From: an uncultured Gaiellaceae bacterium
Lineage (GTDB): Bacteria > Actinomycetota > Thermoleophilia > Gaiellales > Gaiellaceae
Direction of reading: 5' to 3'
DNA length: 64,000 nt
NCBI GenBank assembly: GCA_963734975.1
Contig: CAVTJQ010000020.1
Coordinates: 113,119-177,118, forward strand
Below are positions 6,474 to 53,559 of the stretch, in pieces. The notes beneath the pieces are model-generated. The model was not told the origin of the DNA, ran no database searches, and was given only the letters and a program-made list of their open reading frames with translations. The position numbers and the translations under genes are program-made. The stretch's first letter is position 1. Each line of letters begins with the position of its first letter.

Positions 6474-7491
6474 ATGCCTACGTTTTTCGATCTCCGCAAG
6501 CGCCATCTGCTCCTGTCTCTCGGGACGGTCGCGGTGCTCGTCTTGGTGGCGACCACGCCCCAGCTGCTCGGCGAGCAGGTGGCCGACGGGTTCCACGGGC
6601 TGCTCGTCGCGAGCCCGGCCTGGCTCTGGCTCGCAGCTCTCTCCTTCGCGACGCGCGCTCGTCGCCTCAGGTTGCGCCTGGCGCTCCGCCCTTCGCCGTT
6701 GCGGCGGCGAGCTCGGAAAGGCGGACGCGAGCGCGCGCTACGGCGTGGGCTCGCTCGTGAACGCGGTTGCGCCGGCGAAGCTCGGCAGCGCGCTTCGTCT
6801 CGCGCTCTACTCGCGCGTGATCGTCGGAGAGGGACGGCTGTGGACGACGGGCGGGGTCGCGGCCTCGATCGGCGCAGCTCGCTCGATCTGGGTCGCGGTG
6901 CTGCTCGCGTTCGCGGCGGCGAGCGGCGTCCTACCGGTCTGGCCGCTCGCGCTGCTCGCACTCGGGCTCGCCGTCGCGATCACGGTGGCTGTTCTGTCAC
7001 GCGATCGGAAGCCGAGCGCACGCATCGCGCACGTCCTCGACGCCTTCCGCGCGCTCGGCAGCTGCCCGCGGGCCGCGGCACAGCTCGTCGGCTGGGTCGG
7101 CCTGGCCGCAGCAGCGCGCATCGGCGCCGCGACGGCAATCGCAGCCGCGTTCGGCGTCGAACGTCCGTTGCTGGCCGCACTCCTCGTCGTGCCCGCACTC
7201 GACCTGGCGGGAATCCTGCCGCTTACCCCGGGCAACATCGGAATCGCGAGCGCAGCCGTCGCGTTCGCGCTCCATGCTCACGGTGCGACCAACGGCGCAG
7301 CGCTCTCGGCGGGAATCGCGTTCAGCGCGGTCGAGACGGTGACGAGCCTCGCCTTCGGAGCGGGCAGCGTGCTCTACCTCGCGGCCGGCGCGCCCGGTGC
7401 ACGGCGCTGGACGATGGCCGCGGCCGGCGCGACGGCCTGCCTCGGCCTGGGCGCCGCCTTCGGCGCGACCGTCGTGCTGCCGCTCGTCTAG
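6474..7491 (+). CDS. Lysylphosphatidylglycerol-synthase-TM-region/flippase-like (UPF0104) membrane protein, apparent +1 frameshift near 6651-6658
   Basis: The N-terminus MPTFFDLRKRHLLLSLGTVAVLVLVATTPQLLG...AWLWLAALSFAT is in frame 0 from ATG 6474. The continuation ALVASGCAWRSAL...ARYGVGSLVNAVAPAKLGSALRLALYS is in frame 1 (track ORF 6745..7491). The junction lies in acgcgcgc. Confidence 0.65.
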
Positions 7492-7833
7492 CGCGCGCGG
7501 CGCGGCGCCAGACCGGAGCGCGGGCAGCGGCTCCGCGGATCGGTCGGGATCCGGCGTCGCGAACGACGCATCGGCAAGTGCCCCTTCCACCGGGACGTAG
7601 CCCGTGCACTCGCATGGCGCGGAGCTCAGCGTCTGGAAGTCTCCGATTCTCCTGCGGCACTCACGCCGTCCGCCCTGGACGAAGACCCGCACATGGTCGC
7701 GACGCGGATGCCCGCAGGTATCGCAGAGTGGCGAGCCACCGCAGGTGGGACAGCCGCCGCCATCCGAGATCCAGCGGTGCTTCCGCCGCCTCCAGCTCGC
7801 GCCGCAGTAGCGGCACGCGATCGAGTCACCCAT
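7488..7833 (-). CDS. Putative small Cys-rich (zinc-ribbon-like) protein; 3' end uncertain
   Basis: The internal ATG at 7833 of shadow ORF 6997..7983 gives MGDSIACRYCGASWRRRKHRWISDGGGCPTCGGSPLCDTCGHPRRDH...CECTGYVPVEG. G/C dominates the third codon position. The frame stays open into the convergent gene, so a +1 indel would be needed to end it at TAG 7490..7488. Confidence 0.35.
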
Positions 7834-7876
7834 CGCTCGTGTATTCGACCGCGGGCCGCCGCGACTTGAGGCGACG

Positions 7877-9001
7877 CTACCGACGCAGGAAGCTCGGCGG
7901 CTCGAGCGGGTCCTCTGCTCGAGCCGGGCGACTCGTCGTTCCACTCGAGAAGGTCGGTGCCGGCGTGCGCCTGCGCGTGCCACCGAGACCCGTCGCGACC
8001 ACGGTGACCCAGACCTGACCGGCGAGACGCTCGTCGACCGTGGCGCCGAAGATGATGTTCGTGTCGTCGGTCGCGGCCGCGCGCACGGCCTCGGCTGCGT
8101 CGTTCACCTCGAGCAAGGTCAGGTCCTCGCCGCCCGCGATCGAGAGCAGGATTCCTCGGGCGCCGACGATCTCCGTGTCGATCAACGGCGAGCGGAGGGC
8201 ACGCTCCGCTGCCTGCTTCGCCCGGTCGTCGCCGGTCGCGAAGCCGATTCCCATCAGCGCGGAGCCGGCGTCGGACATGACGGTCCGGACATCGGCGAAG
8301 TCGAGGTTGATCAGCCCCGGCATCGTGATCAAGTCGCAGATCCCCTGGACGCCCTGGCGCAGGACGTCGTCGGCGATCTTGAACGCGTCGAGCATCGACG
8401 TCGAGCGGTCGAGCACCTCGAGCAGGCGGTCGTTCGGGATCACGATCACCGTGTCGCACGCAGCCCGCAGTTCCTCGACGCCCAGATCCGCGGAGGTCTT
8501 GCGCCGGGTTCCCTCGAAGCGGAACGGCGTCGTGACGATGCCGACGGTGAGCGCACCGAGCTCACGCGCGATCTTGGCGACGACGGGCGCGGCGCCCGTA
8601 CCGGTGCCGCCGCCCTCGCCGGCGGTGACGAACACCATGTCCGAACCGCGCAGCGCGTGCTTGATCTGGTCGTACGTGTCCTCGGCAGCGCGGCGGCCGA
8701 TGTCCGGCTCGGCACCCGAGCCGAGGCCCTGCGTGAGCTCGCGGCCGATGTGGATCTTCACTGGTGCGTCCGAGAGCTGGAGCTGCTGCATGTCGGTGTT
8801 GATGGCGACGAACTCGACCTGCGAGATGCCGGCGTCGATCATCCGGTTGACCGCGTTCAGACCGGCGCCGCCGACGCCGACGACGCGAATCACGGCGAGG
8901 TACGACGCGCTGTCGGCACGAGTGGAGTACTCGAGCCGCGGTGCGGGCTCGGGCATCGTCGTGTAGAGGCTCGTGGGCGGCTCGTATGGGCGCTCGCGCA
9001 C
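7877..9001 (-). CDS. ftsZ: Cell division protein FtsZ
   Basis: The ORF contains [21 protein letters not shown], the tubulin signature [21 protein letters not shown], and the C-terminal peptide [11 protein letters not shown]. The start is ambiguous: GTG 9001, ATG 8956, or further upstream via the ORF at 9300 if a 1-nt deletion is assumed. Confidence 0.95.
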
Positions 9002-9300
9002 CGGTTCGGGTGCGGCGACGACGACCGGGGGCGCGGCGTCACCGGCGGAGCAGGCTCTTTCACGCGTGCCGGTGCCGGCGTCGGTGCGGCGGCAGGCTTG
9101 GCGCGCTGCTTGGCAACGAAGTCCGGTACGTGCTCGACCGTCTTCTCCTGAGGCTCCTCCGGGGGCGCGACGGCAGGCGGTGCCGCAGCCACGGGCGGCT
9201 CTTGCGGAGACGCATCGGGCTGTGGCTTCTCGCTCTGCTCGGCCTGCCGCTGAGCGGCTTCGGTCGCACGGAAGAGCTCGGCGAGCGGGCCCTCACGCAT
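8890..9300 (-). CDS. Pro/Glu/Ala-rich ORF between parA-like and ftsZ (either a small disordered protein or a frameshifted N-terminal extension of FtsZ)
   Basis: ATG 9300 overlaps the ParA-like stop (ATGCGTGA). The product is [29 protein letters not shown]...[20 protein letters not shown]. Its last ~110 nt overlap ftsZ out of frame and look non-protein-like. The ftsZ frame is open upstream and reads [20 protein letters not shown]. Confidence 0.4.
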
Positions 9301-10470: not shown

Positions 10471-10564
10471 CGGCCAACGACGCTACCGGCCGGAAGCGAG
10501 ACGCGTGTGCCGATTCAGCGCCGGATCTGTGCCGCTTTCCTCACGGGTTCGTCGCGACGCACCG

Positions 10565-14376: not shown

Positions 14377-15958
14377 TCAACCTCGCGCGCGGTTGACTGC
14401 GGCGCAGAAGCGACCGTAGGTCTCGAGCTCGGCCTCGACCGGCTCGAGCACGAGCGTCAGGGCCGAGCTCTCCAGTCGCTTGCGCATCGAGCGGGCAGCA
14501 GCGCGCGCACGCCTGCGCGCGCCGCCTCCGTTCAGGAGACGTGTCAGGAACGCCACCGCGATCCCGCCGATCACACCGCCGAGCAGGAGACCGGTCGGCA
14601 GCGGCACGCCCCGCGCCTCCGGCACCGGCAGGACGTCGCCCAGGCGCAGGTAGTCGAGCAGGAACAACGCAAGCAGCCACAACACGCCGATCGCGACGGC
14701 GGCGGCCAGCAGCGTCTGCAGCGCGCCCGCGAAGCGCCACCAGCGCGGCCGCCGCAGCTGGAGGTCGGCTCCTGCGACAGCGCGGTCGAGCTCCGCGGCG
14801 ACCTGCGACTCGCGGCTCGTGGCGGCGCTTCGGACGAGTGCAGGCCATGGCTCCGGCAGCCCGGCCGCCGCCGCACTGCCCAGCGCTCGCGCCGCGTTCT
14901 CCACCTGCGCGACCTGAACCGCCGAGGCCGGCGGCAGCGACGTGTGGACTCGTTCCGACGAGTCGCCGCCGAGCCGCAGACGGCGGAGCGGGTCCGGCCG
15001 GAGGCGCTTGAGCCAGCGCACGAACGGCCACCCGGTCGCGAGCACCCCGCTCCGGCGGTGAGCGCGCTCCACGGCCCGGGTCACCGTCGCCACTCCCGCT
15101 GCGTCCTCGAGCGCCCGGCGAAGGCGCGCGTGCTCCTGCCGGCCGACGCGGCCGCCGTCGCCTCCGCAGGCGGCACCGAGACGCCCCGTCGCCGCCTCCA
15201 CGTCCGCCTCGAGCCGCGCGACGACAGCCTCTCGCGCCGCGACTCGCTCCGCCAGGAGCCGCCGCAGCTCGGGCAGCCCCGCGCCCGTGACGGTCGAGAC
15301 GGCGAGCACCGGAACCCGGTCGAGCCCATTGCGCTCGAGCAGCCGCACGAGGTCCGCCCGACACGATGCCAGCGCCTGAGCGTCGAGCAGGTCGGCCTGG
15401 TTGAGCACCACCGCCATGGCGTCGCCGTAACCGACGAAGCGCCGCAGGTAGCCGTCGTGCCAGGCCGCGTCCGCGTACTTCTGCGGATCGACGACCCAGG
15501 CGACCAGGTCGACGAGCTCGACCAGCCGGTCGACCTCCAGCCGGTGGGCGGTCTCGACGGAGTCGAAGTCGGGCAGGTCGAGCAGGACGAGGTCGTCCAG
15601 ATCGTGGCCGCGGGGCGTCGCCGTCGAGGCGGTGCCGCCGCGGCACCTCGAGCCAGTCGAGGAGCGCGGTGGCTCCGTCGCCGCCCCAGACCGCTGCCGC
15701 AGCCGCGGACGTCGTCGGCCGGCGCCGCCCGACCGACCCGAGGTCGGAGCCGGCGAGCGCGTTGAAGAGCGAGGTCTTGCCGGCGCCCGTCGGGCCCGCG
15801 AGCGCCACGACGGTCGATTCCACCCCGAGACCGAGTCGTGCTCCCGCCTTCGTGACGACGGCCCGGCCCGGAGCGAGGAGCTCGTCGTCGAGTCGCCCTT
15901 CGGCCAGCGACGTCGCCTCGGCAAGCGCCGCCAGCCGCACGTCGAGCGTGGCCGTCAC
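14377..15958 (-). CDS. Dynamin-like/HSR1-type GTPase with C-terminal TM hairpin; apparent +1 frameshift near 15606-15618
   Basis: The N-terminus VTATLDVRLAALAE...VVALAGPTGAGKTSLFNALAG...LLDWLEVPRRHRLDGD is in the frame of track ORF 14225..16333. The continuation GHDLDDLVLLDLPDFDSVETAHRLEVDRLVELVDLVAWVVDPQKY... is in ORF 14377..15924. The GTG start overlaps the upstream stop (GTGA). Two TM helices lie near the C-terminus. Confidence 0.8.
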
Positions 15959-17677: not shown

Positions 17678-20600
17678 TCAGGGTCGCAGGACGGCGCGGC
17701 GAGGGCCGGCCAGGAAGCCGGCCTCGACGAGCAGCGGCATGATCTCCGTCTCGATCACCGGTCTGCCGTCGAAGCGCTCGACGGCGAGCCGCTTCGGCTT
17801 GCCGCCGGTCACGGACGCGCCGCGCACGTGCGCGACCAGCGCCTCGATCGCCGGCCGCAGCCACGTCTCGTCGGGCTCGCGGAGCGGCACGAGCGTGCGG
17901 CCGCCGCGCTCGACGAAGAGCGCCGCCTCGCCACCGAGCAGGACGACCTGGGCACCGGCGACGCGTGCCGCCCGCGCACCGGCGCGCCTCGGCCACGGCA
18001 GCGCTGCGCCGTAGGGCTGCGCCGGGTCGGCGGCAGCGAGCACGAGCGGCTCCTCGTCGTCGCCGTCCCGGCCGCGCAGCTCGCGCAGTCGCTCGACCGC
18101 GCCGGCAAGCGCGAACTGGGCGCCGCCGAGCCCTTCGACGAAGTAGCCGCGGCGGCACACGCCGATCGTCTCCAGATCCTTCAGCTCGCCGTAGACCGCG
18201 CCGTAGCCGCCGGGGATGCCCTCGCCGCGGACGCCGTCGCGCGTGACGATCCCCTGCCGCTCGAGCAGGAGCTCGGCGAGCGCGCGCCGGTCGACCCCTT
18301 GTGACTCTGTGTCACCTGCGAACAGCCGCCCGGTGAGCGACCAACGTCCCTGGGTGGAGGTGATCGCGGCGGCGCGGCTGCGCGAGAAGCGCCGCGGGCG
18401 ACCTCGTGACACGGTGTTACGAGGCGTCGCGTAGCGGCGCCCGGCGCGCAGCGGCGTCCACGCGTCGTTCGTCACCTCGCCCGCCCAGACGAGCTCCCAG
18501 AGCGCCGGCAGCGCCGCCTCGGGCTCGAGCTCGGCGGCCTCGACGAGCGGATACCAGAACTCGGCGCTGCCGGTGAGCACCCGGCGGATCGCATCAGCCT
18601 CCTCGCTCTCGGGGGAAGGCGCGCCCGCGGGCTGCCCGAGCAACGGCGCGTCCTCGCGGAAGTAGAGCGCCACACGATCGAGCCCGGCGCCGACCCAGAC
18701 GACCTCGCCCGACGCACAGAGGGCGTCGAGCCAGGCAGGCTGATAGTTGGGCACGCGCCGCGGCAGCACCTCGGACTCCCAGAGCGAGACGGGGAGCGCG
18801 AGCCCCTGGAGCGGGACGAGCGCCTCGCGCAGGCTCGCCCGCCGGTCGATGCCGTGCCAGGCGGGCAGGAAGCGACCGAGCGCAGCCTGCTCCGCCGGCT
18901 CGACTTCCCGGCGCAGCGCGGCGAGCGAGGCCCGTCGCAGGCGCCGCAGCACCTCGGGATCGCACCACTCGCGCTCGGTGCCTCCCGGTCGGAGCTCGCC
19001 GCGTACGAGCGAGTTGTCCCGTTCGAGAGCGTGCAGGAGGTCGGCCACGTCGACGCCGAAGTGCTCGTTGGCCTGCGCGCGTCGTGAACGGCCCTCGGCC
19101 CTTCGCGAAGCGAAGCACGAGCTGGCGCAGCGAGTCGGGCCCGCCCTCGAGGAAGGCCTCGGGCAGCCCGCCGGGCGGCATCACGCCGAGCGCGTCGCGG
19201 TAGCGGCCCGCGTCCTCGGCGGCGAGCAGCCGCGCCTCGCCTGCGAGCCTGATCTCGAGCGCCCGTCGCTCGGCGACGAGCACCGCCGCGAACGCCTCGT
19301 CGTACTCGCCGGGGCGAAGGTCGCCGCGACGGCGCAGCACGTCGTGCAGCTCGTCGGGGTCGCGCGGGCTGCCGCGGAGCTGCGCCTCCACGTCGGCGAG
19401 CGCATCCGCGTCGATCAGCTCGCGCAGCTCCTCCTGCCCCAGCAGCTCCCGCAGCAGATCGCGGTCGAGCGAAAGTGCCTGCGCGCGCCGCTCGGCCGGC
19501 GGCGTGTCGTCCTCGTACATGTACGTCGCGACGTAGTCGAAGAGGAGCGACGAGGCGAACGGCGAGGCCGACACGGTCTCGACGTCGACGAGGTCGAGCT
19601 CGCGCGTCTGCAGCCCACGCAGGATCTGCTTCAGCGCGGGCAGGTCGAAGACGTCCTGGAGACACTCGCGGTAGGTCTCGAGCACGATCGGGAACGAGCC
19701 GTATTTTCTGGCTACCTGCAACAGCCCTTGTGCCTTCAGACGCTGCTGCCAGAGCGGCGTGCGCTGACCCGGGCGGCGGCGCGGGATCAGCAGGGCGCGG
19801 GAGGCGTTCTCGCGGAAGCGCGCGCCGAAGAGCGCAGTCTGCCCCACCTCGTTGACGACCAGCTCCTCGATCTCGTCGGGTGGGATCAGCAGGTCGGCAA
19901 CCGGCGGCAGCGCGTCGGTGTCCGGCAGGTGGAGCGCGATCCCGTCGTCCGACCAGATCGACTGCACCTCGATCCCGAGCGCGTCCCGCAGGCGGGCCGC
20001 GAGCGCCATCCCCCAGGGCGCGTGCACCCGGCCACCGAACGGCGTCAGGATGCAGACGCGCCAGTCGCCGATCTCGTCACGGAAGCGCTCGACCACGATC
20101 GTCCGGTCGGATGGCACCACGCCGGTGGCTGTCTGCTGCTCGCGCGAGATACGTGAGCAGGTTCGCGGCTGCCCGCTCGTCGAGGTGGTACTCGTCGCGC
20201 AGCCGAGCGAGGCCGACGTCGTGGCTCAGAGCCGACAAGCTCCCTCGAAGCCGCGCCGATCTTCTCGCCCAGCTCGTACGGCCGGCCGACGCCCTCGCCC
20301 TTCCAGAACGGGACGGCGCCGGGAACGCCCGGCGCGGGCGAGACGAGCACGCGGTCGCGCGTGATCTCCTCGATCCGCCAGCTGGAGGCGCCGAGCAGGA
20401 ACGTCTGACCCTGTCGCGCCTCGTAGACCATCTCCTCGTCGAGCTCGCCGACGCGCCCTCCGCCGTCCACGAGGTGGACGCCGAAGAGGCCGCGATCGGG
20501 GATCGTGCCCGCGTTCGTGACGGCGAGCCGGCGAGCGCCGGTGCGGCCTCGGATCACGCCCGCGGTGCGATCCCAGACGATCCGCGGCCGCAGCTCGGCG

Positions 20601-21940: not shown

Positions 21941-22012
21941 GCTCACAGGGTACCCCTCGCCCGCCACCGTCCTTCGCGGACGTGTCTGGGGTCTGACCCC
22001 GGACGTGGCCGG

Positions 22013-22209: not shown

Positions 22210-22765
22210 ATGGCCGACGTGCTCCACTTCACCGGGCAACGAGGAAGCGGACGCGCTGATCGCGCGCGACCCGCTCGCACTGCTGATCGGCTTCGCGCTC
22301 GACCAGCAGGTGACGGTGCCGACGGCGTTCCTCGGCCCGCTCAAGCTGCAGCAGCGGCTGGGCCGGCTCGACGCGGCCGAGATCGCGGCGCTCGACCCCG
22401 ACCGGCTCGACTCCGTCTTCCGCGAGAAGCCGGCGATCCACCGCTTCCCGGGCAACATGGCGAAGCGCGTGCAGGAACTGGCGGCAGTCGTCGCCGAGGA
22501 GTACGGCGGCGACGCCGCGCGGGTCTGGCGCGACGCAGCCGACAGCGACGATCTGAAGCGGCGGATCGAGGGACTCCCCGGCTTCGGCGAGATGAAGGTG
22601 AAGGCGCTCGCCTCGGTGCTCGCAAGCGGTTCGGCGCTCGACCTGGCGGAGCCGCTCGTCCCGGATCATCCGATGCTCGGCGACGTCGACTCGCCCGAGG
22701 CTCTCGCCGAGTACCAGGCCGCGAAGCGCGCGTACAAGGCCTCGCTCCGCGCAGCCCAAGGGTGA
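22210..22765 (+). CDS. HhH-GPD family base-excision-repair-type protein; apparent +1 frameshift at codon ~9 (22233-22238)
   Basis: ATG 22210 gives MADVLHFTG. The next frame gives NEEADALIARDPLALLIGFALDQQVTVPTAFLGP...GLPGFGEMKVKAL (helix-hairpin-helix), which is the tail of shadow ORF 19880..22765. Confidence 0.75.
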
Positions 22766-23596
22766 CCTACTCTCTCGTCGCACGCGACCCGCGAGACGGG
22801 AGAGCTCGGCGTCGCGGTGCAGAGCCGCTCCTTCGGCACCGGCGCCGCGGTCCCGTGGGCGCAGGCCGGAGTCGGTGCCGTGGCGACACAGTCATTCACG
22901 CAGCGCAGCTACGGGCCGCTCGGGCTCCAGCTGCTGAAGGAGGGCGCTCCACCCGGCGCCGCGCTCGAGCAGCTCGTGGCCGCGGATGCCCAGCGTGACT
23001 TCCGGCAGGTCGCCTTCGTCGACGCGCAAGGACGGACGGCATCGCACACGGGTGACGCCTGTATCCCGGCCGCCGGCTCGCTCGCGGGCGACGGCTTCTC
23101 GGCGCAGGGGAACATGCTCCGCTCGGACGACGTCGTGCCCGCGCTCGCGGACGGATTCTCTCGCGCCGAGGGCTCGCTCGCGGAGCGACTCCTCGCGGGG
23201 CTCGACGCCGCAGAGGCGGGGGGCGGAGACTTCCGGGGCCGAGAGGCAGGCGCGGTGCTGGTCGTCCCGGCCGAAGGAGACGCGCTCGAGCGGGTCATCG
23301 ACCTGCGCGTGGACAATCACCGCGACCCACTCGGCGAGCTCCGCCGCCTGCTTGGGGAGGCGCAGGCGCTGCGCCGGCTGCGGCGAGCCGCACAGGACGA
23401 GCTCGACGACGCGCTGGAGGAGGCGCGCGCGGCCGGGGTCGACGACGACGTCGCGCGCTGGGTCGCCGCCGTCACGCTCAGCGGCACCGATCGCGAGCGT
23501 GCGGACGCGCTGCTCGCGCCGCTCGTAGCCGAAGACGACCGCTGGCGTGTGGCACTCGACGTCGCCGCGGACCTCGTCCGCCAGGTCGATGGCTGA
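22762..23596 (+). CDS. DUF1028-like (Ntn-hydrolase fold) protein; apparent +1 frameshift near 22788-22795
   Basis: The GTG overlaps the upstream stop (GTGA). VTYSLVARDP is followed in the next frame by ETGELGVAVQSRSFGTGAAVPWAQAGVGAVATQSF... (track ORF 22817..23596). Confidence 0.75.
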
Positions 23597-24671: not shown

Positions 24672-25605
24672 GTGTGCCGGCACGTGAGGCACGCCGCCGC
24701 CCTCGCCCTGCTCTGCCTCCTCGCCGTCGGCGCCGCCTCGGCGTCGCGCCTGCCGGGTGCGCCCGCCTGTCAGGTCCTGCCCGAAGACGAATGCGTGGAA
24801 CCAGCGCGTCGACGCGCTGCCCCGCGCGGCCGACTCCGACCGCATCGTCGCCGCGATCGGCGCCGACGACCACATGCACGCCGACTTCGGCTCGGGGCTC
24901 TGGGAGGGCGGCCCGATCGGCATCCCGATCACCGTCGTCCGCGGCGCGCAGCCGAAGGTGCGGGTCGCCTTCGAGTACGCCTCCGAGTCGGACAAGGGCC
25001 CGTACCCGATCCCCGCAAACGTCGCGATCGAGGGCGGCCGCCACTCCGACGGCGACCGGCACGCGCTGATCGTCGACCGCGACCGCTGCAAGCTGTACGA
25101 GCTCTTCGCCCTCCAGCCAAAGCCCGGCGGCGGCTGGCGGGCCGGCTCGGGCGCGATCTTCGACCTGCGCTCGAACAAGCTCAGGCCGAAGGGCTGGACG
25201 TCCGCGGACGCGGCCGGCCTGCCGATCCTCCCGGGCCTCGCGCGCTACGAGGACGTGGCCCGCGGACGGATCGACCACGCGCTGCGCTTCACCGTCTCGC
25301 GCACGCGGCGCGCCTACGTCTGGCCCGCGCGCCACTTCGCGAGCGACCTCACCGATCCGTCCCTGCCGCCGATGGGGCTGCGCTTCCGGCTCAAGCGCGG
25401 CTACCCGATCGCAGGCTTCCCGCGCCAGGCCCGCATCGTCCTCCGAGCCCTGAAGGAGTACGGGATGATCCTCGCCGACAACGGCTCGAACTGGTTCGTC
25501 TCGGGCGCGCCGCACCCGAAGTGGTCGAACGACGAGCTGCACACGCTGCACCGCGTCCCCGGGTCGGCCTTCGAGGTCGTCGACGGGACAAGCTTGCGCC
25601 CGTAA
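24672..25605 (+). CDS. Secreted conserved hypothetical protein; apparent +1 frameshift just after the signal peptide (~24775-24795)
   Basis: The signal-like N-terminus VRHAAALALLCLLAVGAASASRLPGAPAC is in the frame of ORF 24672. The mature part NAWNQRVDALPRAADSDRIVAAIG...DHALRFTVSRTRRAYVWPARH... is in ORF 24757..25605. Confidence 0.7.
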
Positions 25606-25631: not shown

Positions 25632-26007
25632 CTATGAGGACGGGCGCTTCATGAACAGCTCCGTGAAGTCGGCGCAGCGGCCGTCTCCGATCGAAGCGAA
25701 GCAGGAAGACGTTGTGGTACACGCGCGACACCGTGCCGTCCGGCTCGCGGTACGTGCTCGTGCCGACGGCGACCGCCGCGTCGCCGTCCACGGCGAAGCA
25801 CTCGTAGCTCGCATCGAAGCTGCCCGGCGCGTCGGGCTCCTCGAGCCACGACTCGACGACCGCTTCGCGGCCCTCGAGCGGCTCGTCGTAGGGGTGGTAG
25901 CGGTGGCGCACGTCCTCGCTGAAGAGATCGCCGATCTCGCCGCGGTCGCCGCTTTTCCAGGCCGCGACGTACCGCTCGAGCCAGCTCTTTACGTCGGCTC
26001 GTTCCAC
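25632..26007 (-). CDS. SnoaL/NTF2-like fold protein; apparent +1 frameshift near 25686-25693
   Basis: MERADVKSWLERYVAAWKSGDRGEIGDLFSEDV...VYHNVFLLRFD comes from ORF 25609..26007. It continues as GDGRCADFTELFMKRPSS* in ORF 25632..25814. Confidence 0.7.
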
Positions 26008-32656: not shown

Positions 32657-33880
32657 GGCTGCTCCGCAGCACTCTCGTATCGCTCTCGATCGTGGCCGCG
32701 TCCGCGTGGATGGCCTTTGCGGCGCCGTCCGCAGCGGCAGCGGCCACGCCAGCCGGCACCGTGGTCATGTCCGGGCTCGCAACCCGCGCGGATTGACGTT
32801 CGCGCACGCCGGGCTCAGCCTGTTCGGCAATGCACGTTGGGCGCTCTACGTCGCGGAGGCCGGCAAGGCGGCGGACCAGGTTCGCACTGCATCGCGCTAC
32901 CCCGCGGGGAGCCTGCCTGCCCCGGAGTCACGGGAGCGGTCTCCCGTCTTTGGCGCGGCGAGCAGCAGCGCGTCCTGACGGGTCTGCCCTCCTACGCAGC
33001 TCCCGACGGCTCGAATGCGACGGGACCACACGACGTGTCGTTCGCCTGGCCGTTGTTCGGATCGGTGACGATCGGGCTAGGAGGCCATCCCGATCTGCGC
33101 TCGCAGCTCGGTACCGGCTTCGGCCGAGTCGTCAGCTTCGTGCCCGGCTTCGGGCCGGCCTGGAGCACGGACATCGCCGGCTACGAGGCGACGGCGAACC
33201 CCGACGGCGGCCCGGTCGACAGCAATCCGTACGGGCTGCTCGAAGGCTTCGGGCGAACCATCCTGACGGATGCCGGAGGCAACACGCTGCTCGAGATCCG
33301 CAGGGGCCGGGTGTCCACCCTGGCCGTCCTGCCGTCGCGGGCCCAAGGTCGTCCGACGGATTCAGTGCCGACGGCGGTGGTTCGTGGCCCGGACCGGGCG
33401 CTCTACGTGAGTGAGCTCACCGGCGTCCCGTTCGCACGGGGCGCAGCCAACGTCTACCGGCTGCAGGACGGGACGCCCGAGGTGTTCGCAGCGGGCTTCA
33501 CCACCGTGCTCGATCTCGATTTCGACCGAGCGGGCAACCTGTACGTGCTCGAGCACTCGAGCGGCCCGGTCTTCTTCGGCGGCACCGGAACGCTCTGGAA
33601 GCTCGAGCCGGGCGGCGCGCGGACTCCGGTCGTGCAGGGCTTGACCCGGCCGACGTCCGTGGCGATCGGCCCCGACGGAGCCGCCTACGTCTCGAACCGA
33701 GGCAACGAAGCCGGCTCGGGCGAGGTACGCCGATTCGACGTCGGTGACCCCCTCCGGCTCCCCCTTTGCCGCTTCGGTCGAGGAGTCGTAAACACTGCAA
33801 TCGCGCCCGTCCGGAGGCGGCGGCCAAGCGCCTCCGCCTCCGGACGGCGTACAATCCGGACGTGGCCATTCGCACGATGA
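32653..33880 (+). CDS. ScyD/ScyE-like secreted beta-propeller protein; two apparent -1 frameshifts (~32778-32782, ~32865-32870); 3' end uncertain
   Basis: A GAAGGAGG SD precedes ATG 32653. The signal peptide is MRLLRSTLVSLSIVAASAWMAFAAPSAAAA. The sequence continues as NPRGLTFAHAGLSLFGNARWALYVAEAGK (frame of ORF 32706), then GGGPGSHCIALPRGEPACPGVTGAVSRL...LYVSELTGVPF...NLYVLEH...AYVSNRG (ORF 32717..33880). Codon bias decays after about 33760, and a hairpin lies at 33807-33847. Confidence 0.7.
33807..33847 (+). terminator. Perfect 14-bp inverted repeat (hairpin), candidate intrinsic terminator without a U-tract
   Basis: ccgtccggaggcgg - 13 nt loop - ccgcctccggacgg, read directly. It is located just before the HxlR-type gene. 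Confidence 0.4.
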
Positions 33881-36798: not shown

Positions 36799-36813
36799 CG
36801 CGCGCGAGTCTAG

Positions 36814-37467: not shown

Positions 37468-37519
37468 TCGACCTCCTTTCACGAAATGCCGGCCGAAATG
37501 GGGCCAGCGGAAGCCGCAC

Positions 37520-37548
37520 ATCATGAACCCTCCGATCCCTCGTGTCAA
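37520..37548 (-). promoter_or_regulatory. Candidate sigma-70-type promoter
   Basis: On the minus strand: TTGACA (37548-37543), 17-nt spacer, CATGAT (37525-37520). It lies in a 350-bp stretch that reads as lower-GC non-coding sequence. Confidence 0.3.
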
Positions 37549-37568
37549 GAGCGGGGAAGACCAGATGA

Positions 37569-38388
37569 TCAGACCTTCTGCACCTCGAAGTAGAGGAGCG
37601 CGTGGTCGGAGAACCGCCGCACCCAGGCGAGCCGCTCGTCGCGCGACTCGAGCTTCGGCCAGCCACGCACGGCGACGTCGAAGCCGCCGAACTGCTTGAA
37701 GCGCAGGTGCTCGCGCGCGACGACGAAGTCGAGGCTGGAGGGGTCGATCGAGCCGCCGCCCCACCAGGTGAACGGCTCGTCCTTCTCCAGCACCTTCATC
37801 TGGCGGCGCGGCGCCCCGCGCGTCAGCTTGAGCAGCTCCTTGTCGGCCATGATGTCCCGCTCGCGGACGTAGCGGTACTGCATGCCCATGATGTTGAAGT
37901 CGCCGAGGAAGATGTAGTTCGCGCGCCGGCCCGGAGGCGCGGAGCGGTCGAGCACCTTCGCGAAGTCGAGCGCCCGGGTGAGCATGTCGTCGCGCAGCCC
38001 GAGCCCGCGGGGATCGGTGCCGCTCTTCGTGTGCAGGAAGAGCAGCGGGTAGCTCTGATCGCTCGACCCGGACGGTGAGCAGCGCGCCCGGACGCAGCAG
38101 CGAGACACCCGAGCGGAACTCGGTCTTCTGGGTGAAGAACGCCGTCAGCCCCTGGCGGACGCCGAGCAGGATCTGCTGCACCTGCGAGCCCTCGGTGATG
38201 TGGAACGTGTACTTCGGCATCTGCGAGGTGAGCGCCTCGTAGACCTTGCTGCCCTCGACCTCGTAGAGCGCGAAGACGTCGGGACGCTGCTCGTCGAGGA
38301 ACGCGAGGACGTCCTCGACGCGGCTGTCGACGCGCTGGCTGCGGAAGTGCTCGACGTTCCAGGAGGCGACCGAGAAGGCTTTCGCCAT
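37569..38388 (-). CDS. Endonuclease/exonuclease/phosphatase (EEP) family protein; apparent +1 frameshift near 38058-38066
   Basis: MAKAFSVASWNVEHF...PDVFALYEVEG...LLTVRVE comes from ORF 37420..38388. It continues as DQSYPLLFLHTKSGTDPRG...NYIFLGDFNIMG...FSDHALLYFEVQKV in ORF 37569..38108. Confidence 0.75.
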
Positions 38389-40702: not shown

Positions 40703-41870
40703 ATGGCCACCTACCGCGAGCTGCTGCAGCAGGTGAAGGGCGAGATCGACGAGATCGGCGCGGCCGACGCGCGCGAGCGCACCGGTTCTGCGCTCTTCCT
40801 CGACGTGCGCGAGCAGGACGAGTGGGACGAGGGCGTCGTACCGGGCGCGATCCACGTGCCGCGCGGCCAGCTCGAGTCGCGGATCGAGGGGCTCGTGCCC
40901 GACAAGGAGCGCGAGCTCGTCGTCTACTGCGCCGGCGGCTCCCGCTCGGCCTTCGCCGCCAAGTCGCTCGGCGAGCTCGGCTACGGCAACGTCAGGTCGC
41001 TCACGGGCGGCTTCACCGACTGGAAGCGCAACGGCTTCGAGGTCGAGACGCCGCAGGCGCTGACGCCGCCGCAGCGCGCTCGCTACAGCCGCCACCTGCT
41101 GATCCCGGAGGTCGGCGAGGCGGGCCAGCAGAAGCTGCTCGACTCGCGCGTGCTCCTGATCGGCGCCGGCGGGCTCGGCTCCCCCGCGTCGCTCTACCTC
41201 GCCGCCGCCGGCGTCGGCACGCTCGGGATCGTCGACGCGGACGTCGTCGACGACTCGAACCTCCAGCGCCAGATCGTCCATTCGACGAAGCGGCTCGGCG
41301 AGCCCAAGGTGCAGTCGGCCAAGGACACGATCGAGGCGCTGAACCCGGACGTCGAGGTCAAGGGGTACGAGGAACGGCTCACCTCCGAGAACGTCGAGCG
41401 GATCCTGGGCGACGGCTGGGACGTGATCGTCGACGGCGCCGACAACTTCCCGACCCGCTACCTCGTCAACGACGCGTCCGTCTGGCACGACGTTCCCGTC
41501 GTGCACGGCTCGATCTACCGCTTCGAAGGCCAGGTGACGGTCTTCAAGCCGGGGGACGGCCCGTGCTACCGCTGCCTCTTCCCCACCCCGCCGCCGCCCG
41601 GAGCTCGCGCCGAGCTGCGCCGAGGGCGGCGTCCTCGGCGTGCTGCCGGGGATCATCGGCTCGCTCCAGGCGAGCGAGGCGCTGAAGCTGCTGCTCGGGA
41701 TCGGCGACTCGCTGCAGGGCCGCCTGCTCCTCTTCGACGCGCTCGCGACGACCTTCGACGAGGTCTCGGTGAAGCGCGACCCGGCCTGCCCAGTCTGCGG
41801 CGAGAGCCCCTCGATCACGGAGTACGTCGACTACGTCGAGTTCTGCGCCGGCCCGCGGGTGACGTCGTGA
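40703..41870 (+). CDS. Rhodanese-ThiF/MoeB (E1-like adenylyltransferase/sulfurtransferase, MoeZ-like but rhodanese at the N-terminus); apparent +1 frameshift near 41588-41602
   Basis: ATG 40703 starts a rhodanese region FLDVREQDEWDEGVVPGAIHVP...VVYCAGGSRSAF. The ThiF region follows: RYSRHLLIPEVGEAGQQKLLDSRVLLIGAGGLGSPASLYLAAAGVG...CYRCLFPTPPPP. The next frame gives ELAPSCAEGGVLGVLPGIIGSLQASEALKLLLGIG...CPVCG (ORF 41640..41870). Confidence 0.85.
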
Positions 41871-43451: not shown

Positions 43452-43824
43452 ATGCGCTGTCTCGTGAAGCTGCTGGCCCCCACTGCGCTCGTCGCGCTCG
43501 CGCTCGCCCTCGCCGGCTGCGGCACGGACAACAGCGGCGGCGGCTCGGCTGCCGACACCAACCCCGAAGGAGCCGGGGTCGGCTTGTCGGTGCAGGAGGC
43601 GCTGCTCGTCGGCCTCGACGCGCCGACAGCTCGTCAGCGGCTACCTGATCGAGGAGGACGGGACGCTGAAGCTCTGCGAGAGCCTGCAGGAATCGGAGCC
43701 GCCCGGGTGCGGCGAGCCGTCCCTGACAGTCGAGGGGAGCATGCTCGCGGACCTGCCTCGCGGCGAGCTCGTGGACGTGAACGGCGAGGTCTCCGGCACG
43801 ACGATCACTCCGACGCCGGGCTAA
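43452..43824 (+). CDS. Small lipoprotein; apparent +1 frameshift near 43618-43630
   Basis: The lipobox reads MRCLVKLLAPTALVALALALAGCGTDNSGG. The sequence continues in the next frame as QLVSGYLIEEDGTLKLCESLQESEPPGCGEPSLTVEGSMLADLPRGELVDVNGEVSGTTITPTPG*. Confidence 0.65.
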
Positions 43825-44649
43825 TCGAGCCGCTCGACCTCGGCGTCCGTGAGCTCGAGCTCACGCGCCGCCATGTTCTCGTCCAGGTGCTCGAGCGACG
43901 AGGTGCCGGGGATCGGGATCGTCACCGGCGAGCGCCGAAGCAGCCACGCGAGTGCCACCTGAGCCGCAGTCGCATCGCGCTCGCGCGCGATCGACTCGAC
44001 CGGCCCGCCTGAGCGGGCGAGCTCGCCGGCGTCGAGCGGGTACCAGGGCAGAAATGCGATCCCTGCCCGCTCGCAGGCCTCGAGCACGTCCTCCGACTCG
44101 CGATTGCCGAGGTTGTACTCGTTCTGCACCGACGCGATCTCGACGATGTCGCGCGCCTCGCCGAGCTGCGCGACCGAGACGTTGGAGAGGCCGACGTGCC
44201 GGATCTTGCCCTCGTCGCGCAGCTCCTTCAGCGCCCCGACCGAGTCGGCGAACGGAACCTTCGGGTCGGGACGGTGCAGCTGGTAGAGGTCGATCCGCTC
44301 GAGGCGCAGCCGGGCGAGCGAGCCCTCGCAGGCGGCACGAAGATGCTCCGGTCTCCCGTCCTGCGGCCAGCCGCCCGGCCCGCCGCCGCGAACCAGCCCG
44401 CCCTTCGTGGCGACGACGATCCCGTCGTAGGGGTACAGCGCCTCCGCGACCTGGAGCTCGTTCACCTCGGGCCCGTACGCGTCGGAGGTGTCGACCAGGG
44501 TCGCGCCGAGCTCGACCGCACGACGAAGCACCCGCAGCGCGTTCTCCCGATCCTCGGGCCAGCCCGGTCACCCGCGGACCGCAGAGCCGCATCGCGCCGT
44601 AGCCGATCCGGTTCACCTCGAGCTCGCCGCCGATCCAGAAGGTCTCCAT
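43821..44649 (-). CDS. Aldo/keto reductase; apparent +1 frameshift near 44560-44568
   Basis: METFWIGGELEVNRIGYGAMRLCGPRVTG comes from ORF 43861..44649. It continues as WPEDRENALRVLRRAVELGATLVDTSDAYGP...IDLYQLHRPD...IRHVGLSN...IPIPGTSS in ORF 43821..44531. Confidence 0.85.
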
Positions 44650-45331: not shown

Positions 45332-46824
45332 GTGGGCACGTCCTCCGTCCTGACGCCGGAAGCGGTCGAGTTCCTCACCGAGCTCGAGCGGCGCTTCGGG
45401 CCGCGGCGGCGGGAGTTGCTCGCCGCGCGGGACGAGCGCGCGCAACGGCTCCGGGACGGTGAGCTGCCCGACTTCCTCCCCGAGACTCGGGACGTGCGGG
45501 AGCGCGACTGGCAGGTCGAGCCGGTGCCGGATGAGCTGCAGGACCGTCGCGTCGAGATCACCGGCCCGGTCGACCGGAAGATGGTGATCAACGCGCTCAA
45601 TTCCGGCGCGCGCATGTTCATGGCCGACTTCGAGGACTCGAACTCGCCCACCTGGCGGAACTGCATCGAGGGCCAGGTCAACCTCACCGACGCGCTCGAG
45701 CGCACGATCTCGCTTGATACCGGGTCGAAGCAGTACGCCCTGAACGACGACGTCGCGACGCTTGCTCGTGCGTCCGCGCGGCTGGCACCTCGTCGAGCGC
45801 CACTTCGATGTCGACGGCGCGGCGATCTCTGCCTCCCTCTTCGACTTCGGGCTCTACTTCTTCCGCAACCACGACCGCGGCGGCCGCTTCTTCTACCTGC
45901 CGAAGCTCGAGAGCCACCTCGAGGCCAGGCTCTGGAACGACGTCTTCGCCTGGGCCCAGGACGAGCTCGGCGTCGCCCGTGGCTCGATCAAGGCCACCGT
46001 CCTGATCGAGACGATCCTCGCCGCGTTCGAGATGGACGAGATCCTGTACGAGCTGCGCGAGCACTCGGCCGGGCTGAACGCGGGCCGCTGGGACTACATC
46101 TTCAGCGTGATCAAGAAGCTCGGACACCGGCCCGAGTTCGTGTTGCCGGATCGCGCCGACGTGACCATGGCCGTGCCGTTCATGCGCGCATACGCCGACC
46201 TGCTCGTGAAGACCTGCCACCGCCGCGGAGCGCACGCGATCGGCGGCATGGCCGCCTTCATCCCCTCACGCCGCGACCCCGAGGTGAACGAGAGGGCTTT
46301 GGCGAAGGTGCGCGAAGACAAGGAGCGGGAGGCGGCCCAGGGTTTCGACGGCACCTGGGTCGCCCATCCCGATCTCGTCCCGGTGGCCACCGAGATCTTC
46401 GACCGCGTGCTCGGCGAGCGGCCGAACCAGGTCGAGCGTCAGCGCGACGACGTGGACGCCTCCGCAGCGGCCCTGCTCGACGTCGCCGCCACTCCGGGCG
46501 AGATCACCGAGGACGGTCTGCGCAACAACATCTCGGTCGGGATCCAGTACCTCGGCGCGTGGCTGAACGGCTCCGGCGCCGTCGCGATCTTCAACCTGAT
46601 GGAGGACGCCGCGACCTCGGAGATCTCGCGCTCACAGGTGTGGCAGTGGCTGCACCACGGCAAGGTCGACCGCGCCGACGTCGAGCGAGTGCTCGCCGAG
46701 GAGGTCGCGGAGCTGGACGACAGGTACGACGAGGCACGGGTCGCTCTTCGAGCAGGTCGCGCTCGGCGACGACTTCGTCGAGTTCCTGACGCTCCCCGCC
46801 TACGAGCGCCTCGACGACGCCTAA
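45332..46824 (+). CDS. aceB: Malate synthase A; two apparent +1 frameshifts (~45758-45766 and ~46738-46746)
   Basis: [35 protein letters not shown] comes from ORF 45332. [14 protein letters not shown]...[19 protein letters not shown]...[10 protein letters not shown]...[11 protein letters not shown] comes from ORF 45762. The third frame gives [26 protein letters not shown]. Confidence 0.9.
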
Positions 46825-47452
46825 TCGCCCGCGACGAAGAACTGCCAGTCGCCGTCGGCCGTGATCGCGGTGCGGTAGCCGAGGTAGCCGAGTTCTGCTC
46901 GCGCATCACGTCGACCTGCTCCTGGGTGTGGAGGCCCGCGTCGACGAGCGACTGCCAGGCCTCGTCGGTCGGCGACTCGGTGTAGGCGGTCGGCCAGGCG
47001 TAGGAGCCCGACTCGTTGCGCGTGTGGGGCAACGTCAGGATCGTGGCGAGGACTCGCATCGGCTCCTCCGCCCCGCTCTCCTCGAGCTCCTGCCAGCGCG
47101 CCGCGGCGGAGTCGTCGGGGCCGGCGCCGTAGCTGAAGGTGAAGCCCTCGCCCTGCTCCAGCGCGATCTGCTCGAGCGTCTCGTAGTCGCAGGCGACGGC
47201 GGCGTCGAAGACGCGCTGCCGCACGTCCGCGACGGGCTCCGGCAGCTCCTGCTCGGGCAGGCTCAGCCGCAGGCCGGCCGTCGAGCACTCGACTCCTGGC
47301 TCGGCGGGCTCGGGCGCGGGGGGCGGCTCGGCCTCGACCGTCTCGGTCTGGGTGACCGTCACCGTCTCAGGCGCCGGCGCGGCGGCGTTGTCGGACTCGC
47401 TGCCGCAGGCGGCGAGCACGAGGACGAGCACGAACGCGAGCAGGACTCTCAT
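46821..47452 (-). CDS. Lipoprotein, hypothetical; apparent -1 frameshift near 46893-46899
   Basis: The lipobox [22 protein letters not shown] lies within shadow ORF 46439..49540. The C-terminus [24 protein letters not shown] is in ORF 46821..47288. Confidence 0.65.
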
Positions 47453-47991: not shown

Positions 47992-48988
47992 GTGCTCGCG
48001 GACGCCCACACCGACCTGCTGATGGAGCTCGCATACCGTTCGCACCGGCTCGGTGAACACGACGTCTTCGCCCGGACCTGGCTGCCGTTGCTCGAGGCCG
48101 GCGACGTGGGGCTCCAGGTGTGCCCCATCTTCGTGGAGCTCCACCACCAGCCGGAGGGAACGCTGCGGCAGGCGCTCGGACAGGTCGCCGCCTTCCATGC
48201 CGCCGTGCGCGAGAACGGCGACCGCGTCGTCGCGGTCCGGACACGGGCCGACCTCGAGCTCGTCGAGCGCGGCGAGCGAATCGGGCTCGTGCTCGCCCTC
48301 GAGGGCGTCGAGCCGCTCGGTTACGAGACGTGGGGCGGCGACCTCTTCTGGGAGCTCGGCCTTGCGCGTGGCCGGCCTGACGTGGAACCGCCGCAATCCG
48401 TATGCGGACGGCGCCGCCGAGCAGGGAGGTCTCTCGCGGCTCGGGCGGGCACTGCTCGCGCGCCTGGCCGAGCTCGGCGTCGTGCTCGACCTCTCCCACG
48501 CCTCGGAACGGCTCTTCGCCGAGTGCCTCGATCTCTACGAGGGCCGCGTCTGCGTGACGCACGCCGCGTGTCGCGCAGTCCACGACCATCCGCGCAACCT
48601 CACCGACGAGCAGCTGGGGGCGCTGGCCGACCGCGACGGCCTGCTCGGAGTGATGCTGCATCCCCTCGCGATCGACCCGGAGCGGCGGACGATCGAGCGG
48701 GTGATCGACCACCTGGAGCACGCTGCTTCGGTGCTCGGCCCGGAGCGCATCTGCCTCGGCGGCGACTGGACGAAGCGCCTGACCGCGGTGCTCGGGAGCG
48801 CCCCCGTCCCCGACGCGCTGATGCCGCCCGGCCTGGAGGACGGCATGAGCATCGAGGGCCTGACCGGGCCGGAGGACTACGGCGTCCTCGTCGAGGCGCT
48901 GCGTGCGCGCGGCTGGGAGGGCGACCGGCTGGACGGTCTGCTCTCGGCGAACCTCGTCCGGCTGTTCCGCGAGACGCTCCCCGCCTGA
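47992..48988 (+). CDS. Membrane dipeptidase (peptidase M19 family); apparent +1 frameshift near 48357-48368
   Basis: VLADAHTDLLMELAYR...LQVCPIFVE...LVLALEGVEPLG...DLFWELG comes from ORF 47476..49164. It continues as LRVAGLTWNRRNPYADG...VVLDLSHASERLF...VTHAACRAVHDHPRNLTDEQL...ICLGGDW in ORF 48053..48988. Confidence 0.8.
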
Positions 48989-52098: not shown

Positions 52099-52808
52099 CG
52101 CATCAGCATCCCGCCATTGACGTCGAGCGTCGCACCGGTCACGAAGCCCGCCGCGTCGGACGCGAGATACGCGACGGCCGCCGCCACCTCCTCCGGCCGG
52201 CCGAGACGCCCGACGGGAATCGTCTTCAGCATCGCCTCCAGCCGCGCCGGCTCGACGCTTGCGACGGACGGGCCGTCGATCGCAGCGGGCGCAACGGCAT
52301 TCACCGTCACGCCCGAGCCCGCCAGCTCGTGCGCCGCATGCCTCGTCAGAGCGACGATCGCCGCCTTCGAGGTCGCGTAGTGGACGCCTGTCGCCGAGGT
52401 GCTTCGCTGCCCTGCGACAGACGCGAGATTGACGATCCGGCCGGCACCTCGGTCGCGCATCTGCGCCCCGACGACGCGGCAGCCGAGGTACGTGCCGCGC
52501 AGGTTCGTCGCGAGCACGTCGTCCCACTCGTCGACCTCGATCTCCCAGAACGAGCGAAACTCGGTGCGGGCCGCGTTGTTCACGAGCACGTCCACCTCGC
52601 CCGCAGCCGCGAGCAGGCGCTCCCAGGATTCGAGGCTGCGCACGTCGTGCTCGATCGCCGGCGCGTTTCCCCCGAGCTCGGCGGCCAGCGCCTCGGCGCC
52701 GTCCAGGTTCACGTCCGCGAGCACGACGCGGTCACCGTCCGAGTGGAGCCGCCGGGCGATCGCCTCGCCGAGACCCCGCGCCGCACCCGTCACGACGGCT
52801 GTCCGCAC
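52095..52808 (-). CDS. Short-chain dehydrogenase/reductase (SDR)
   Basis: 237-aa ORF with TGAARGLGEAIA, LVNNAA, the catalytic YATSKAA, and GATLDVNGG. Confidence 0.9.
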   Translation of the reverse strand: MRTAVVTGAARGLGEAIARRLHSDGDRVVLADVNLDGAEALAAELGGNAPAIEHDVRSLESWERLLAAAGEVDVLVNNAARTEFRSFWEIEVDEWDDVLATNLRGTYLGCRVVGAQMRDRGAGRIVNLASVAGQRSTSATGVHYATSKAAIVALTRHAAHELAGSGVTVNAVAPAAIDGPSVASVEPARLEAMLKTIPVGRLGRPEEVAAAVAYLASDAAGFVTGATLDVNGGMLMR

Positions 52809-52811
52809 CGG

Positions 52812-53559
52812 CTACTCGACCACGACGTGGATCCGCTGCTTCGACTCCCGTAGCGGGCCGCCGCCGCGCTCGGCGCGCGTCGCGAGCGCCTCGGCGAGGA
52901 TCGAGACGGCCGTTTCCTCGTTCGAGTCGGCGCCGATGTCCAGCCCGCACGGCCCCGAGATCCGCGGCAGCTCGTCCTCCGCGACGCCCGCCTCGAGCAG
53001 CCGCTCGCGCCGCCGCTCCTGATTGCGGCGCGAGCCGAGCGCGCCGATGTAGAACGCCTCCGTCGCCAGGGCGGCCTTCAGCGCCGGCACGTCGAACTTG
53101 TCGTCGTGCGTCAGCACCACGACGGCCGTCGAGTGATCGGGGGCCACCTGCGCAAAGGTCTCCTCGGGCCACTCGACGACGAGCTCGTCCGCGCTCGGGA
53201 TCCGCTCCGCCGTGGCGAACTTTCCGCGTGCGTCGGCGACGATCGTGGTCCAGCCCAGCAGCTTGGCGGCGCGGCAGAGCGACTCTGCCGTGTCGACGGC
53301 GCCGTAGACGAGCAGGCGCGGCGGCGGGCCGTAGACCTCGCAGAAGACGCGGCGCCCCTCCAGCTCGAGCAGCTTGTTGCGGCCACCGCGGATCAGCGCG
53401 CCGACATGCTGAGCCAGCTCTGGCGGGCCCGTCGCCCTCGATCTCGCCCGACTCGCGCGCGAGCAGCTTGCCGCCGGCGCCGTCGCCCTCGAGCACGGTG
53501 AAGAGCACCGCGTGCTCACCCGACTCGGCGAGCCCGACAAGCCGCTCCAGCAGCGTCAT
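52812..53559 (-). CDS. XdhC/CoxI-family accessory protein (full length); apparent +1 frameshift near 53423-53433
   Basis: MTLLERLVGLAESGEHAVLFTVLEGDGAGGKLLARESGEIEGDG comes from ORF 52732..53616. It continues as PPELAQHVGALIRGG...RLLVYGAVDTAESLCRAAKLLGW...VVLTHDDKFD...IGALGSRRN in ORF 52812..53540. The ATG overlaps the upstream stop (ATGA). Confidence 0.75.

Follow-up and report, generated by a model that had tools for sequence, protein, structure and literature searches.

Frame breaks in conserved genes of a Gaiellaceae metagenome-assembled genome are very probably single-base consensus errors

When about 20 conserved genes on one stretch of a bacterial genome each change reading frame partway through, it must be asked whether the breaks belong to the organism or to its assembly. 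Such a stretch, a 64,000-nt window of a Gaiellaceae metagenome-assembled genome (MAG) from an uncultured bacterium of soil, was analyzed here. The assembly comprises 3.19 Mb in 23 contigs, the longest of 903 kb, with an estimated completeness of 77% and an estimated contamination of 1.66%. An initial annotation of the window, made from the sequence, had listed the junctions at which the frames change and had favored assembly or base-calling indels over old pseudogenes.

All 22 listed junctions were present in the deposited sequence, each at the position first proposed or a few bases away (Table 1). Three kinds of evidence were used: DNA alignment to three syntenic genomes of the same genus (G011, G012, and G018), a single Pfam domain spanning the junction, and uninterrupted homologs. 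As proposed, 18 junctions were of the one-extra-base type. At 14 of these, DNA alignment revealed exactly one surplus base in the window relative to all available syntenic relatives (sites 6653, 19080, 20144, 20232, 22236, 24780, 25690, 29077, 41595, 43622, 45763, 46740, 48363, and 53426), with sites 25690 and 43622 aligned against G011 only. The four further insertion-type junctions (15609, 22790, 38059, and 44555) were verified by one Pfam domain running across the junction in the read-through translation. Pfam domains also crossed DNA-aligned junctions, namely, SnoaL_2 at 25690, LPG_synthase_TM at 6653, Amidohydro_3 at 29077, ThiF at 41595, and Peptidase_M19 at 48363. Three to four missing-base junctions had been suspected, and four were verified from the lengths of relatives, homologs, and single open reading frames (ORFs): 46892, 32780, 32866, and the break at 9020-9045 in ftsZ. 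Each indel that could be resolved by DNA alignment was 1 nt. At 13 junctions, an independent Viterbi model of codon usage put the frame switch no more than about 15 nt from the verified position.

Table 1. Frame breaks in the window, with the evidence at each junction
Gene	Position	Strand	Break	Evidence
LPG_synthase_TM/UPF0104 membrane protein	6650..6656	+	one extra base, frame +3 to +1	tblastn frame switch; 1-nt gap in G011, G012, and G018; PF03706 across junction
FtsZ	9020..9045	-	-1 type, in Pro/Ala-rich linker between conserved N-terminal extension and FtsZ core	one ORF of 466-470 aa in relatives (MREGPL... to ...EPPSFLRN); two frames needed in window
GTPase	15606..15618	-	+1 type, between G1/G2 and G3 motifs	HMM switch 15609/15610; MMR_HSR1 at residues 65-178, junction at residue 131
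Lhr helicase, third of three breaks	19074..19084	-	one extra base	tblastn and DNA alignment
Lhr helicase, second break	20139..20148	-	one extra base	tblastn and DNA alignment
Lhr helicase, first break	20221..20234	-	one extra base	tblastn and DNA alignment
HhH-GPD gene	22233..22238	+	one extra base after codon 9	CACCGGG-AACG in 3/3 relatives versus CACCGGGCAACG in window
DUF1028 gene, near start	22788..22795	+	+1 type	PF06267 1-193/193 across junction; three-frame view
Secreted protein, just past signal peptide	24775..24795	+	one extra base	1-nt gap in 3/3 relatives
SnoaL-like protein, near C-terminus	25686..25693	-	one extra base	SnoaL_2 2-100/102 across junction; 1-nt gap in G011
Amidohydro_3 gene	29068..29078	+	one extra base, T to TT	tblastn, DNA alignment, and Pfam domain
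ScyD-like secreted beta-propeller	32778..32782	+	one missing base, frame +1 to +3	homologs uninterrupted
ScyD-like gene, second missing base	32865..32870	+	one missing base, frame +3 to +2	homologs uninterrupted
Endonuclease/exonuclease/phosphatase gene	38058..38066	-	+1 type	HMM switch 38059/38060; PF03372 (Exo_endo_phos) 1-225/225 spans
Rhodanese-ThiF (MoeZ-type) gene	41588..41602	+	one extra C, CC to CCC	tblastn, DNA alignment, and Pfam
Lipoprotein gene	43618..43630	+	one extra base	1-nt gap in G011; HMM switch 43624/43625
Aldo/keto reductase	44554..44568	-	+1 type	PF00248 (Aldo_ket_red) 1-287/291 spans; HMM switch 44554/44555
Malate synthase A, first break	45758..45766	+	one extra base, T to TT	tblastn and DNA alignment
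Malate synthase A, second break	46738..46746	+	one extra base	tblastn and DNA alignment
Lipoprotein gene, near C-terminus	46889..46899	-	one missing base	HMM switch 46890/46891; lengths in G011, G012, and G018 equal the window's +1 mod 3
M19 membrane dipeptidase	48357..48368	+	one extra base, T to TT	tblastn, DNA alignment, and Peptidase_M19 spans
XdhC-family gene	53423..53433	-	one extra base	DNA alignment; HMM switch 53419/53420

Orthologs and homologs ran uninterrupted across the junctions. Lhr is a single frame of 1405 to 1435 aa in G011 and G012, the pieces in the window are 77 to 90% identical to orthologs by tblastn, and the best 120 database homologs of malate synthase A are all single proteins of 489 to 522 aa. 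In five homologs of the ScyD-like protein, exactly one residue falls at each junction (VVMSGL[D]NPRGL and AEAG[R/E]GG). A scan of the window for frameshifts beyond those already listed found none. A tblastn frame switch at about position 520 was rejected because DNA alignment assigned the indel to G011 itself, and the other same-strand frame changes in the window were ordinary gene boundaries (5087, 13931, 15964, 26339, 35461, 38409, 41859, 42124, 43064, 52100, 53561, 54107, 55720, 56267, 60197, 62288, 63331, and 63675). Searches of the window against Rfam and for tRNA genes gave no hits. Two long genes, encoding the 921-aa LAL regulator and a 655-aa propeller, were intact, as first described. 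No exact protein match to the LAL regulator was on record, and no near-identical independent assembly was found, the best match to the read-through malate synthase among 5.8 billion clusters being 93% identical.

The kinds of lesion were then compared. Insertions outnumbered deletions 24 to 4 (18:4 in the window and 6:0 in the ribosomal region), counted from homology-verified sites only because the strong class of the frame model described below favors insertion-type events, stops being rare in that off-frame. Real bacterial pseudogenes reportedly show a deletional bias, and an insertion excess is the opposite of this, which favors an artefact; on the other side, no documented error profile was found to match the excess. 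A scan of 34,114 bases of conserved coding sequence found no internal nonsense codon, versus at least 14 frameshifts within the same 34 kb, and the five stops seen in the scan all lay upstream of gene starts. The broken genes are otherwise perfectly open, as had been noted at first. Both codon bias and ortholog identity (77 to 100%) were undiminished downstream of each break. The junctions had been described as lying in short G/C runs or CGCG contexts. These were not true homopolymer runs; the alignments mostly showed a single added base beside CG or GC, or a duplication of T to TT or C to CC. No common motif, such as a methylation motif, was evident by eye at 20 aligned insertion sites, and no slippery motif or homopolymer was common to the aligned junctions.

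For the rest of the assembly, a codon-usage frame HMM was employed, in which a strong switch was defined as a same-strand switch with the upstream frame open for >60 nt beyond it. This threshold was adopted because the initial criterion, which asked only for a stop >9 nt beyond the switch, lacked stringency, yielding 16 to 37 calls per 100 kb even in relatives. Over all large contigs, 972 strong switches were called, or about 30 per 100 kb, and every contig of >100 kb carried 20 to 35 per 100 kb. The comparison with other contigs that had been proposed as a check thus revealed similar breaks on each of the large ones. With the same HMM, 100-kb samples from relatives in the same genus gave 1 (G041), 3 (G018), 3 (G048), 6 (G052), and 8 (G012) strong switches, whereas G011, another few-contig MAG, gave 22. 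Inside the window, 10 of 10 strong calls were correct and 10 of the 22 verified sites were recovered; on this basis, the true total of frame breaks in the assembly is probably about 2,000, as a rough figure.

Essential single-copy genes elsewhere on the same contig were broken likewise, namely, those for EF-Tu, ribosomal proteins L2 and S4, and adenylate kinase, in addition to FtsZ inside the window. Compared with G018, one extra base was present in each of the genes for EF-Tu, S4, adenylate kinase, and an acyl-CoA ligase, and two were present in that for L2. Identity to G018 flanking the breaks was 94 to 100% for EF-Tu and S4 and 76 to 92% for L2, adenylate kinase (79%), and the acyl-CoA ligase. 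For rplB, positions 1 to 70 and 70 to 274 of TIGR01171 were matched in two frames, while the gene is one 281-aa frame in G018; no other match to rplB, and hence no second copy, was found in the genome. The rpoB gene, which is cut short by the contig end (C2), was uninformative, as was rpoC, which was not found.

The indels therefore exist in the deposited sequence, are specific to this assembly, occur genome-wide, and strike essential genes. They are very probably uncorrected single-base consensus errors in a MAG probably assembled from long reads, and the genes of the organism are almost certainly intact at these sites. The errors would be mostly spurious inserted bases, scattered over the whole assembly at about one per 1.5 to 3 kb. 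We infer that they arose when bases were miscalled, or the consensus was misbuilt, from Nanopore reads alone and at a modest depth. The shape of the assembly, with few and long contigs yet a completeness of just 77%, would agree with this. Many few-contig relatives in this lineage are MFD Nanopore-only MAGs, and the MFD soil MAG catalogue was produced by Flye assembly with a single Medaka round and without short-read polishing (PMC12313526). At coverage below about 40x, indels in a Nanopore consensus are documented to shift the frames of called genes (PMC9262707). Long-read-only assemblies (Nanopore or PacBio CLR; IDEEL test) likewise carry single-base indels that split conserved genes assembly-wide, are absent from relatives, and lower completeness estimates, as here. 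Unlike classic Nanopore indels, the present sites are not long homopolymers, and insertions predominate. Since the breaks are almost certainly consensus errors and occur throughout the assembly, even in EF-Tu, L2, S4, and FtsZ, they constitute a warning about assembly quality rather than biology. Almost certainly, no new biology is involved, and the frame breaks are not a real feature of the genome.

Recent genome decay, which the initial annotation had left open, would require that hundreds to thousands of genes have been inactivated by real single-base indels. The deposited sequence does carry the indels, and a completeness of just 77% would agree with decay. As in Mycobacterium leprae and recent host-restricted symbionts, many genes are frameshifted yet recognizable. 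However, decay would have had to inactivate EF-Tu, L2 (sole copy), S4, Adk, and FtsZ together. In reductive evolution, the core of translation and cell division is spared, and the lesions are a mixture of nonsense mutations, larger deletions, and IS insertions with a deletion bias; more generally, indels in real bacterial pseudogenes are of mixed sizes. None of these lesion traits was seen here, where the events are 1 nt only, with insertions in excess and no nonsense codons, and core translation and division genes are broken. The preserved codon bias and ortholog identity beyond the breaks, together with a genome size and GC content that are ordinary for the genus, also stand against decay. 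Genuine recent pseudogenes are thus very unlikely.

An artefact of different origin, a consensus built across co-assembled, closely related strains, is less likely still. Soil Gaiellaceae are highly diverse, with hundreds of distinct relatives at 77 to 93% identity, and the density of frameshifts is over-dispersed along the contigs (variance/mean, 2 to 3), both of which could fit such a mixture; the estimated contamination of 1.66% counts against it. Whether strains were merged or bases were miscalled at low depth, the practical consequence is identical.

Decoding of the frame changes in vivo, by programmed ribosomal frameshifting, transcriptional slippage, or RNA editing, has almost no probability. 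The sole point in its favor is that each gene is otherwise open, which recalls the +1 frame change inside the otherwise open gene in prfB-type programmed frameshifting. Programmed sites carry slippery and stimulatory motifs of a defined kind and are conserved among orthologs. Unlike these, the present junctions are unique to one assembly and lack a motif; all relatives have a single frame, and about a thousand sites of both +1 and -1 types would require decoding. Judged from orthologs without the indels, this explanation appears effectively refuted. It is just as implausible that the indels are real and that full-length proteins arise through genome-wide tolerance or correction, at the transcript or ribosome level, of +1 errors at non-slippery sites.

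With consensus errors as the favored explanation, the matter is one of data hygiene, as this genome represents its species in a public taxonomy set. At about one error per 1.5 to 3 kb, ORF-based annotation splits or loses a large fraction of genes; by rough estimate, spurious indels cut up or shorten between a quarter and half of them. This would distort what is derived from the genome, namely, gene calls, protein clusters, pangenome presence/absence tables, and estimates of completeness and of pseudogene number. Before gene content is inferred, the genome needs to be polished with short reads of the same sample or annotated by a frameshift-aware method. Within the genus, at least the few-contig genome G011 calls for similar care.

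All of the frame breaks described in the initial annotation were upheld by alignment, Pfam, and homologs: 18 junctions of the insertion type (one extra base) and 4 of the deletion type (one missing base). For comparison, 100 kb of syntenic DNA was taken from each of three genomes of the same genus (G011, G012, and G018), and their GC3-rich open frames were translated and searched against the window with tblastn. Single ORFs of the relatives were split across frames of the window, and local MAFFT alignments located an extra base at 14 sites. For genes without a syntenic ortholog, each side was translated in its own frame, joined with an X at the junction, and scanned against Pfam; in every case, a single domain match spanned the junction. 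The LPG_synthase_TM, Amidohydro_3, ThiF, and Peptidase_M19 domains likewise spanned their junctions.

Frame breaks and other features examined (window positions unless a contig is given)
Feature	Position	Observation
Extra base, sites 1-7	6653, 19080, 20144, 20232, 22236, 24780, 25690	Exactly +1 base versus every available relative (MAFFT)
Extra base, sites 8-14	29077, 41595, 43622, 45763, 46740, 48363, 53426	Exactly +1 base versus every available relative (MAFFT)
Split relative ORFs	6650, 19080, 20144/20234, 29076, 41599, 45763, 46739, 48363, 53425	One relative ORF matches neighboring segments in different frames (tblastn)
GTPase gene		MMR_HSR1 spans junction (Pfam)
DUF1028 gene		DUF1028 1-193/193 spans junction (Pfam)
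SnoaL gene		SnoaL_2 2-100/102 spans junction (Pfam)
Endonuclease/exonuclease/phosphatase gene		Exo_endo_phos 1-225/225 spans junction (Pfam)
Aldo/keto reductase gene		Aldo_ket_red 1-287/291 spans junction (Pfam)
Deletion-type junction	46892	Length in G011, G012, and G018 equals the window's +1 (mod 3)
ftsZ	7877-9300 (-)	Deletion type; frame switch required in linker, ~9035-9045
Lhr helicase gene	17678-21967 (-)	Three +1 insertions, totaling +3
L2 gene break	G000:C20:273977-274047	Two separate 1-nt insertions, ~20 nt apart
Stretch lacking codon-usage signal	36800-37571	~770 nt, flanked by a conserved gene and the EEP gene

Two of the deletion-type junctions lay in the ScyD-like gene, for which five homologs, two of them paralogs in the same genome, were uninterrupted and held exactly one residue per junction (VVMSGL[D]NPRGL and AEAG[R/E]GG). 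In the relatives, ftsZ encoded a single protein of 466-470 aa, with a conserved N-terminal peptide followed by a Pro/Ala-rich linker and the FtsZ core. When malate synthase was read through its breaks, its alignments to the 120 top database hits spanned 98-100% of its length; these hits were all single malate synthase A proteins of 489-522 aa and had the three Pfam domains expected. Frame switches were also called with an independent seven-state Viterbi model, its codon usage trained on 499 long ORFs of the source assembly (G000); at 13 junctions, the call fell within ~15 nt of the verified position. The remaining same-strand frame changes in the window were all normal gene boundaries, and no further break was found. 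In Lhr, the last fragment was back in the frame of the first; this return is a coincidence, and a naive start-to-stop check could look deceptively consistent.

The breaks could be read as sequence errors or as genuine pseudogenes. In the 34,114 bases of the window under sense-frame alignments with an identity of ≥60%, no internal stop codon was found alongside at least 14 frameshifts, which argues for errors; the five stops in this set were all upstream of the true gene start. Genuine pseudogenes of bacteria are reported to be biased toward deletions and to carry lesions of various sizes (Mira, Ochman & Moran 2001). Here, every event resolved at the DNA level was exactly 1 nt, with 24 insertions to 4 deletions, and codon bias and ortholog identity were undiminished past every break, both of which again favor errors. 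The insertions did not fall in long homopolymers; approximately half were duplications of an adjacent base (T to TT, C to CC or CCC); in the others, a new base adjoined CG/GC. No documented error profile predicting the strong insertion excess was found; the excess nevertheless points to a technical rather than a mutational process.

Indispensable genes were also broken, which likewise speaks against pseudogenes: FtsZ in the window and, elsewhere on the assembly, L2, EF-Tu, S4, and adenylate kinase. Positions 1-70 and 70-274 of TIGR01171 (ribosomal protein L2) matched in two different frames of contig C20, and no second L2 copy was found in the G000 genome; in G018, L2 occupied one frame (281 aa). 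When the ribosomal-protein region of G018 (40 kb) was compared with G000, frame switches appeared in these four genes and in an acyl-CoA ligase gene. Except in L2, one extra base in G000 accounted for each break. The identity of EF-Tu to G018 was 94% ahead of the break and 100% past it. The two L2 insertions jointly mimicked a single missing base, and some deletion-type junctions elsewhere could likewise be double insertions.

To count breaks across the assembly, the same Viterbi model was used, and only same-strand switches whose abandoned frame stayed open for >60 nt past the switch were scored (strong switches), thereby excluding ordinary stop/start overlaps. The whole assembly contained 972, or 30 per 100 kb, with 20-35 per 100 kb on all contigs >100 kb. 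Within the window, all 10 strong switches were correct and 10 of the 22 verified sites were recovered; therefore, the true genome-wide number is, as a rough estimate, probably near 2,000. The preferred reading of the initial annotation, assembly or base-calling indels, was strongly supported, and the frame breaks are almost certainly an assembly-quality artifact across the entire genome rather than a biological feature.

In 100-kb samples of same-genus genomes, strong switches numbered 1 (G041), 3 (G018), 3 (G048), 6 (G052), 8 (G012), and 22 (G011). A 1-nt indel belonging to G011 itself (2 contigs; sample G011:C2:1730001-1830000, L009-L013) lay in the ortholog of the gene at ~520. Because G011 is 93% complete yet switch-rich, a high completeness score is no guarantee that a long-read MAG of this genus is free of indels. 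Lhr was a single frame of 1405-1435 aa in G011 and G012. It was split into several frames in G006 (L003) and G010 (L005), two few-contig genomes with a completeness of 55-63%, a pattern that suggests the same artifact in other species representatives.

G000 comprises 3.19 Mb (71% GC) in 23 contigs, the largest of 903 kb, with an estimated completeness of 77%; the window covers positions 113119-177118 of its contig C20. Named relatives of Lhr were in every case uncultured Gaiellaceae/Gaiellales (Thermoleophilia) soil MAGs, and MFD isolate names were common among the few-contig ones. For the MFD catalogue, Flye (--meta, --nano-hq) was used to assemble Nanopore reads, followed by one round of Medaka polishing and no short-read correction (PMC12313526). 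The same group reported that Nanopore consensus indels lead to frameshifted gene calls and that ~40x coverage is required for near-finished quality (PMC9262707). G000 fits a long-read MAG, because its contigs are very long yet completeness is just 77% and because MFD long-read MAGs abound among its relatives; its platform, depth, and read support are inferred. Anyone who analyzes gene content or pseudogenes in G000, or in some of the few-contig relatives, should take the frame breaks as a warning.

Two further observations were made in the window. The stretch at 36800-37571 had no codon-usage signal in any frame and no Rfam or tRNA hit, and its two longest ORFs had no Pfam match. The FtsZ of the genus (relatives L009-L023) carried a conserved N-terminal extension of ~135 aa before the tubulin-like core, made up in order of a 19-residue segment, a 14-residue segment, and a variable Pro/Ala-rich linker. 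This extension appears to belong to the protein, because the residue directly preceding the core in G018 is Leu, not Met. The C terminus carried a normal EPPSFLR peptide, preceded by a very short C-terminal linker.
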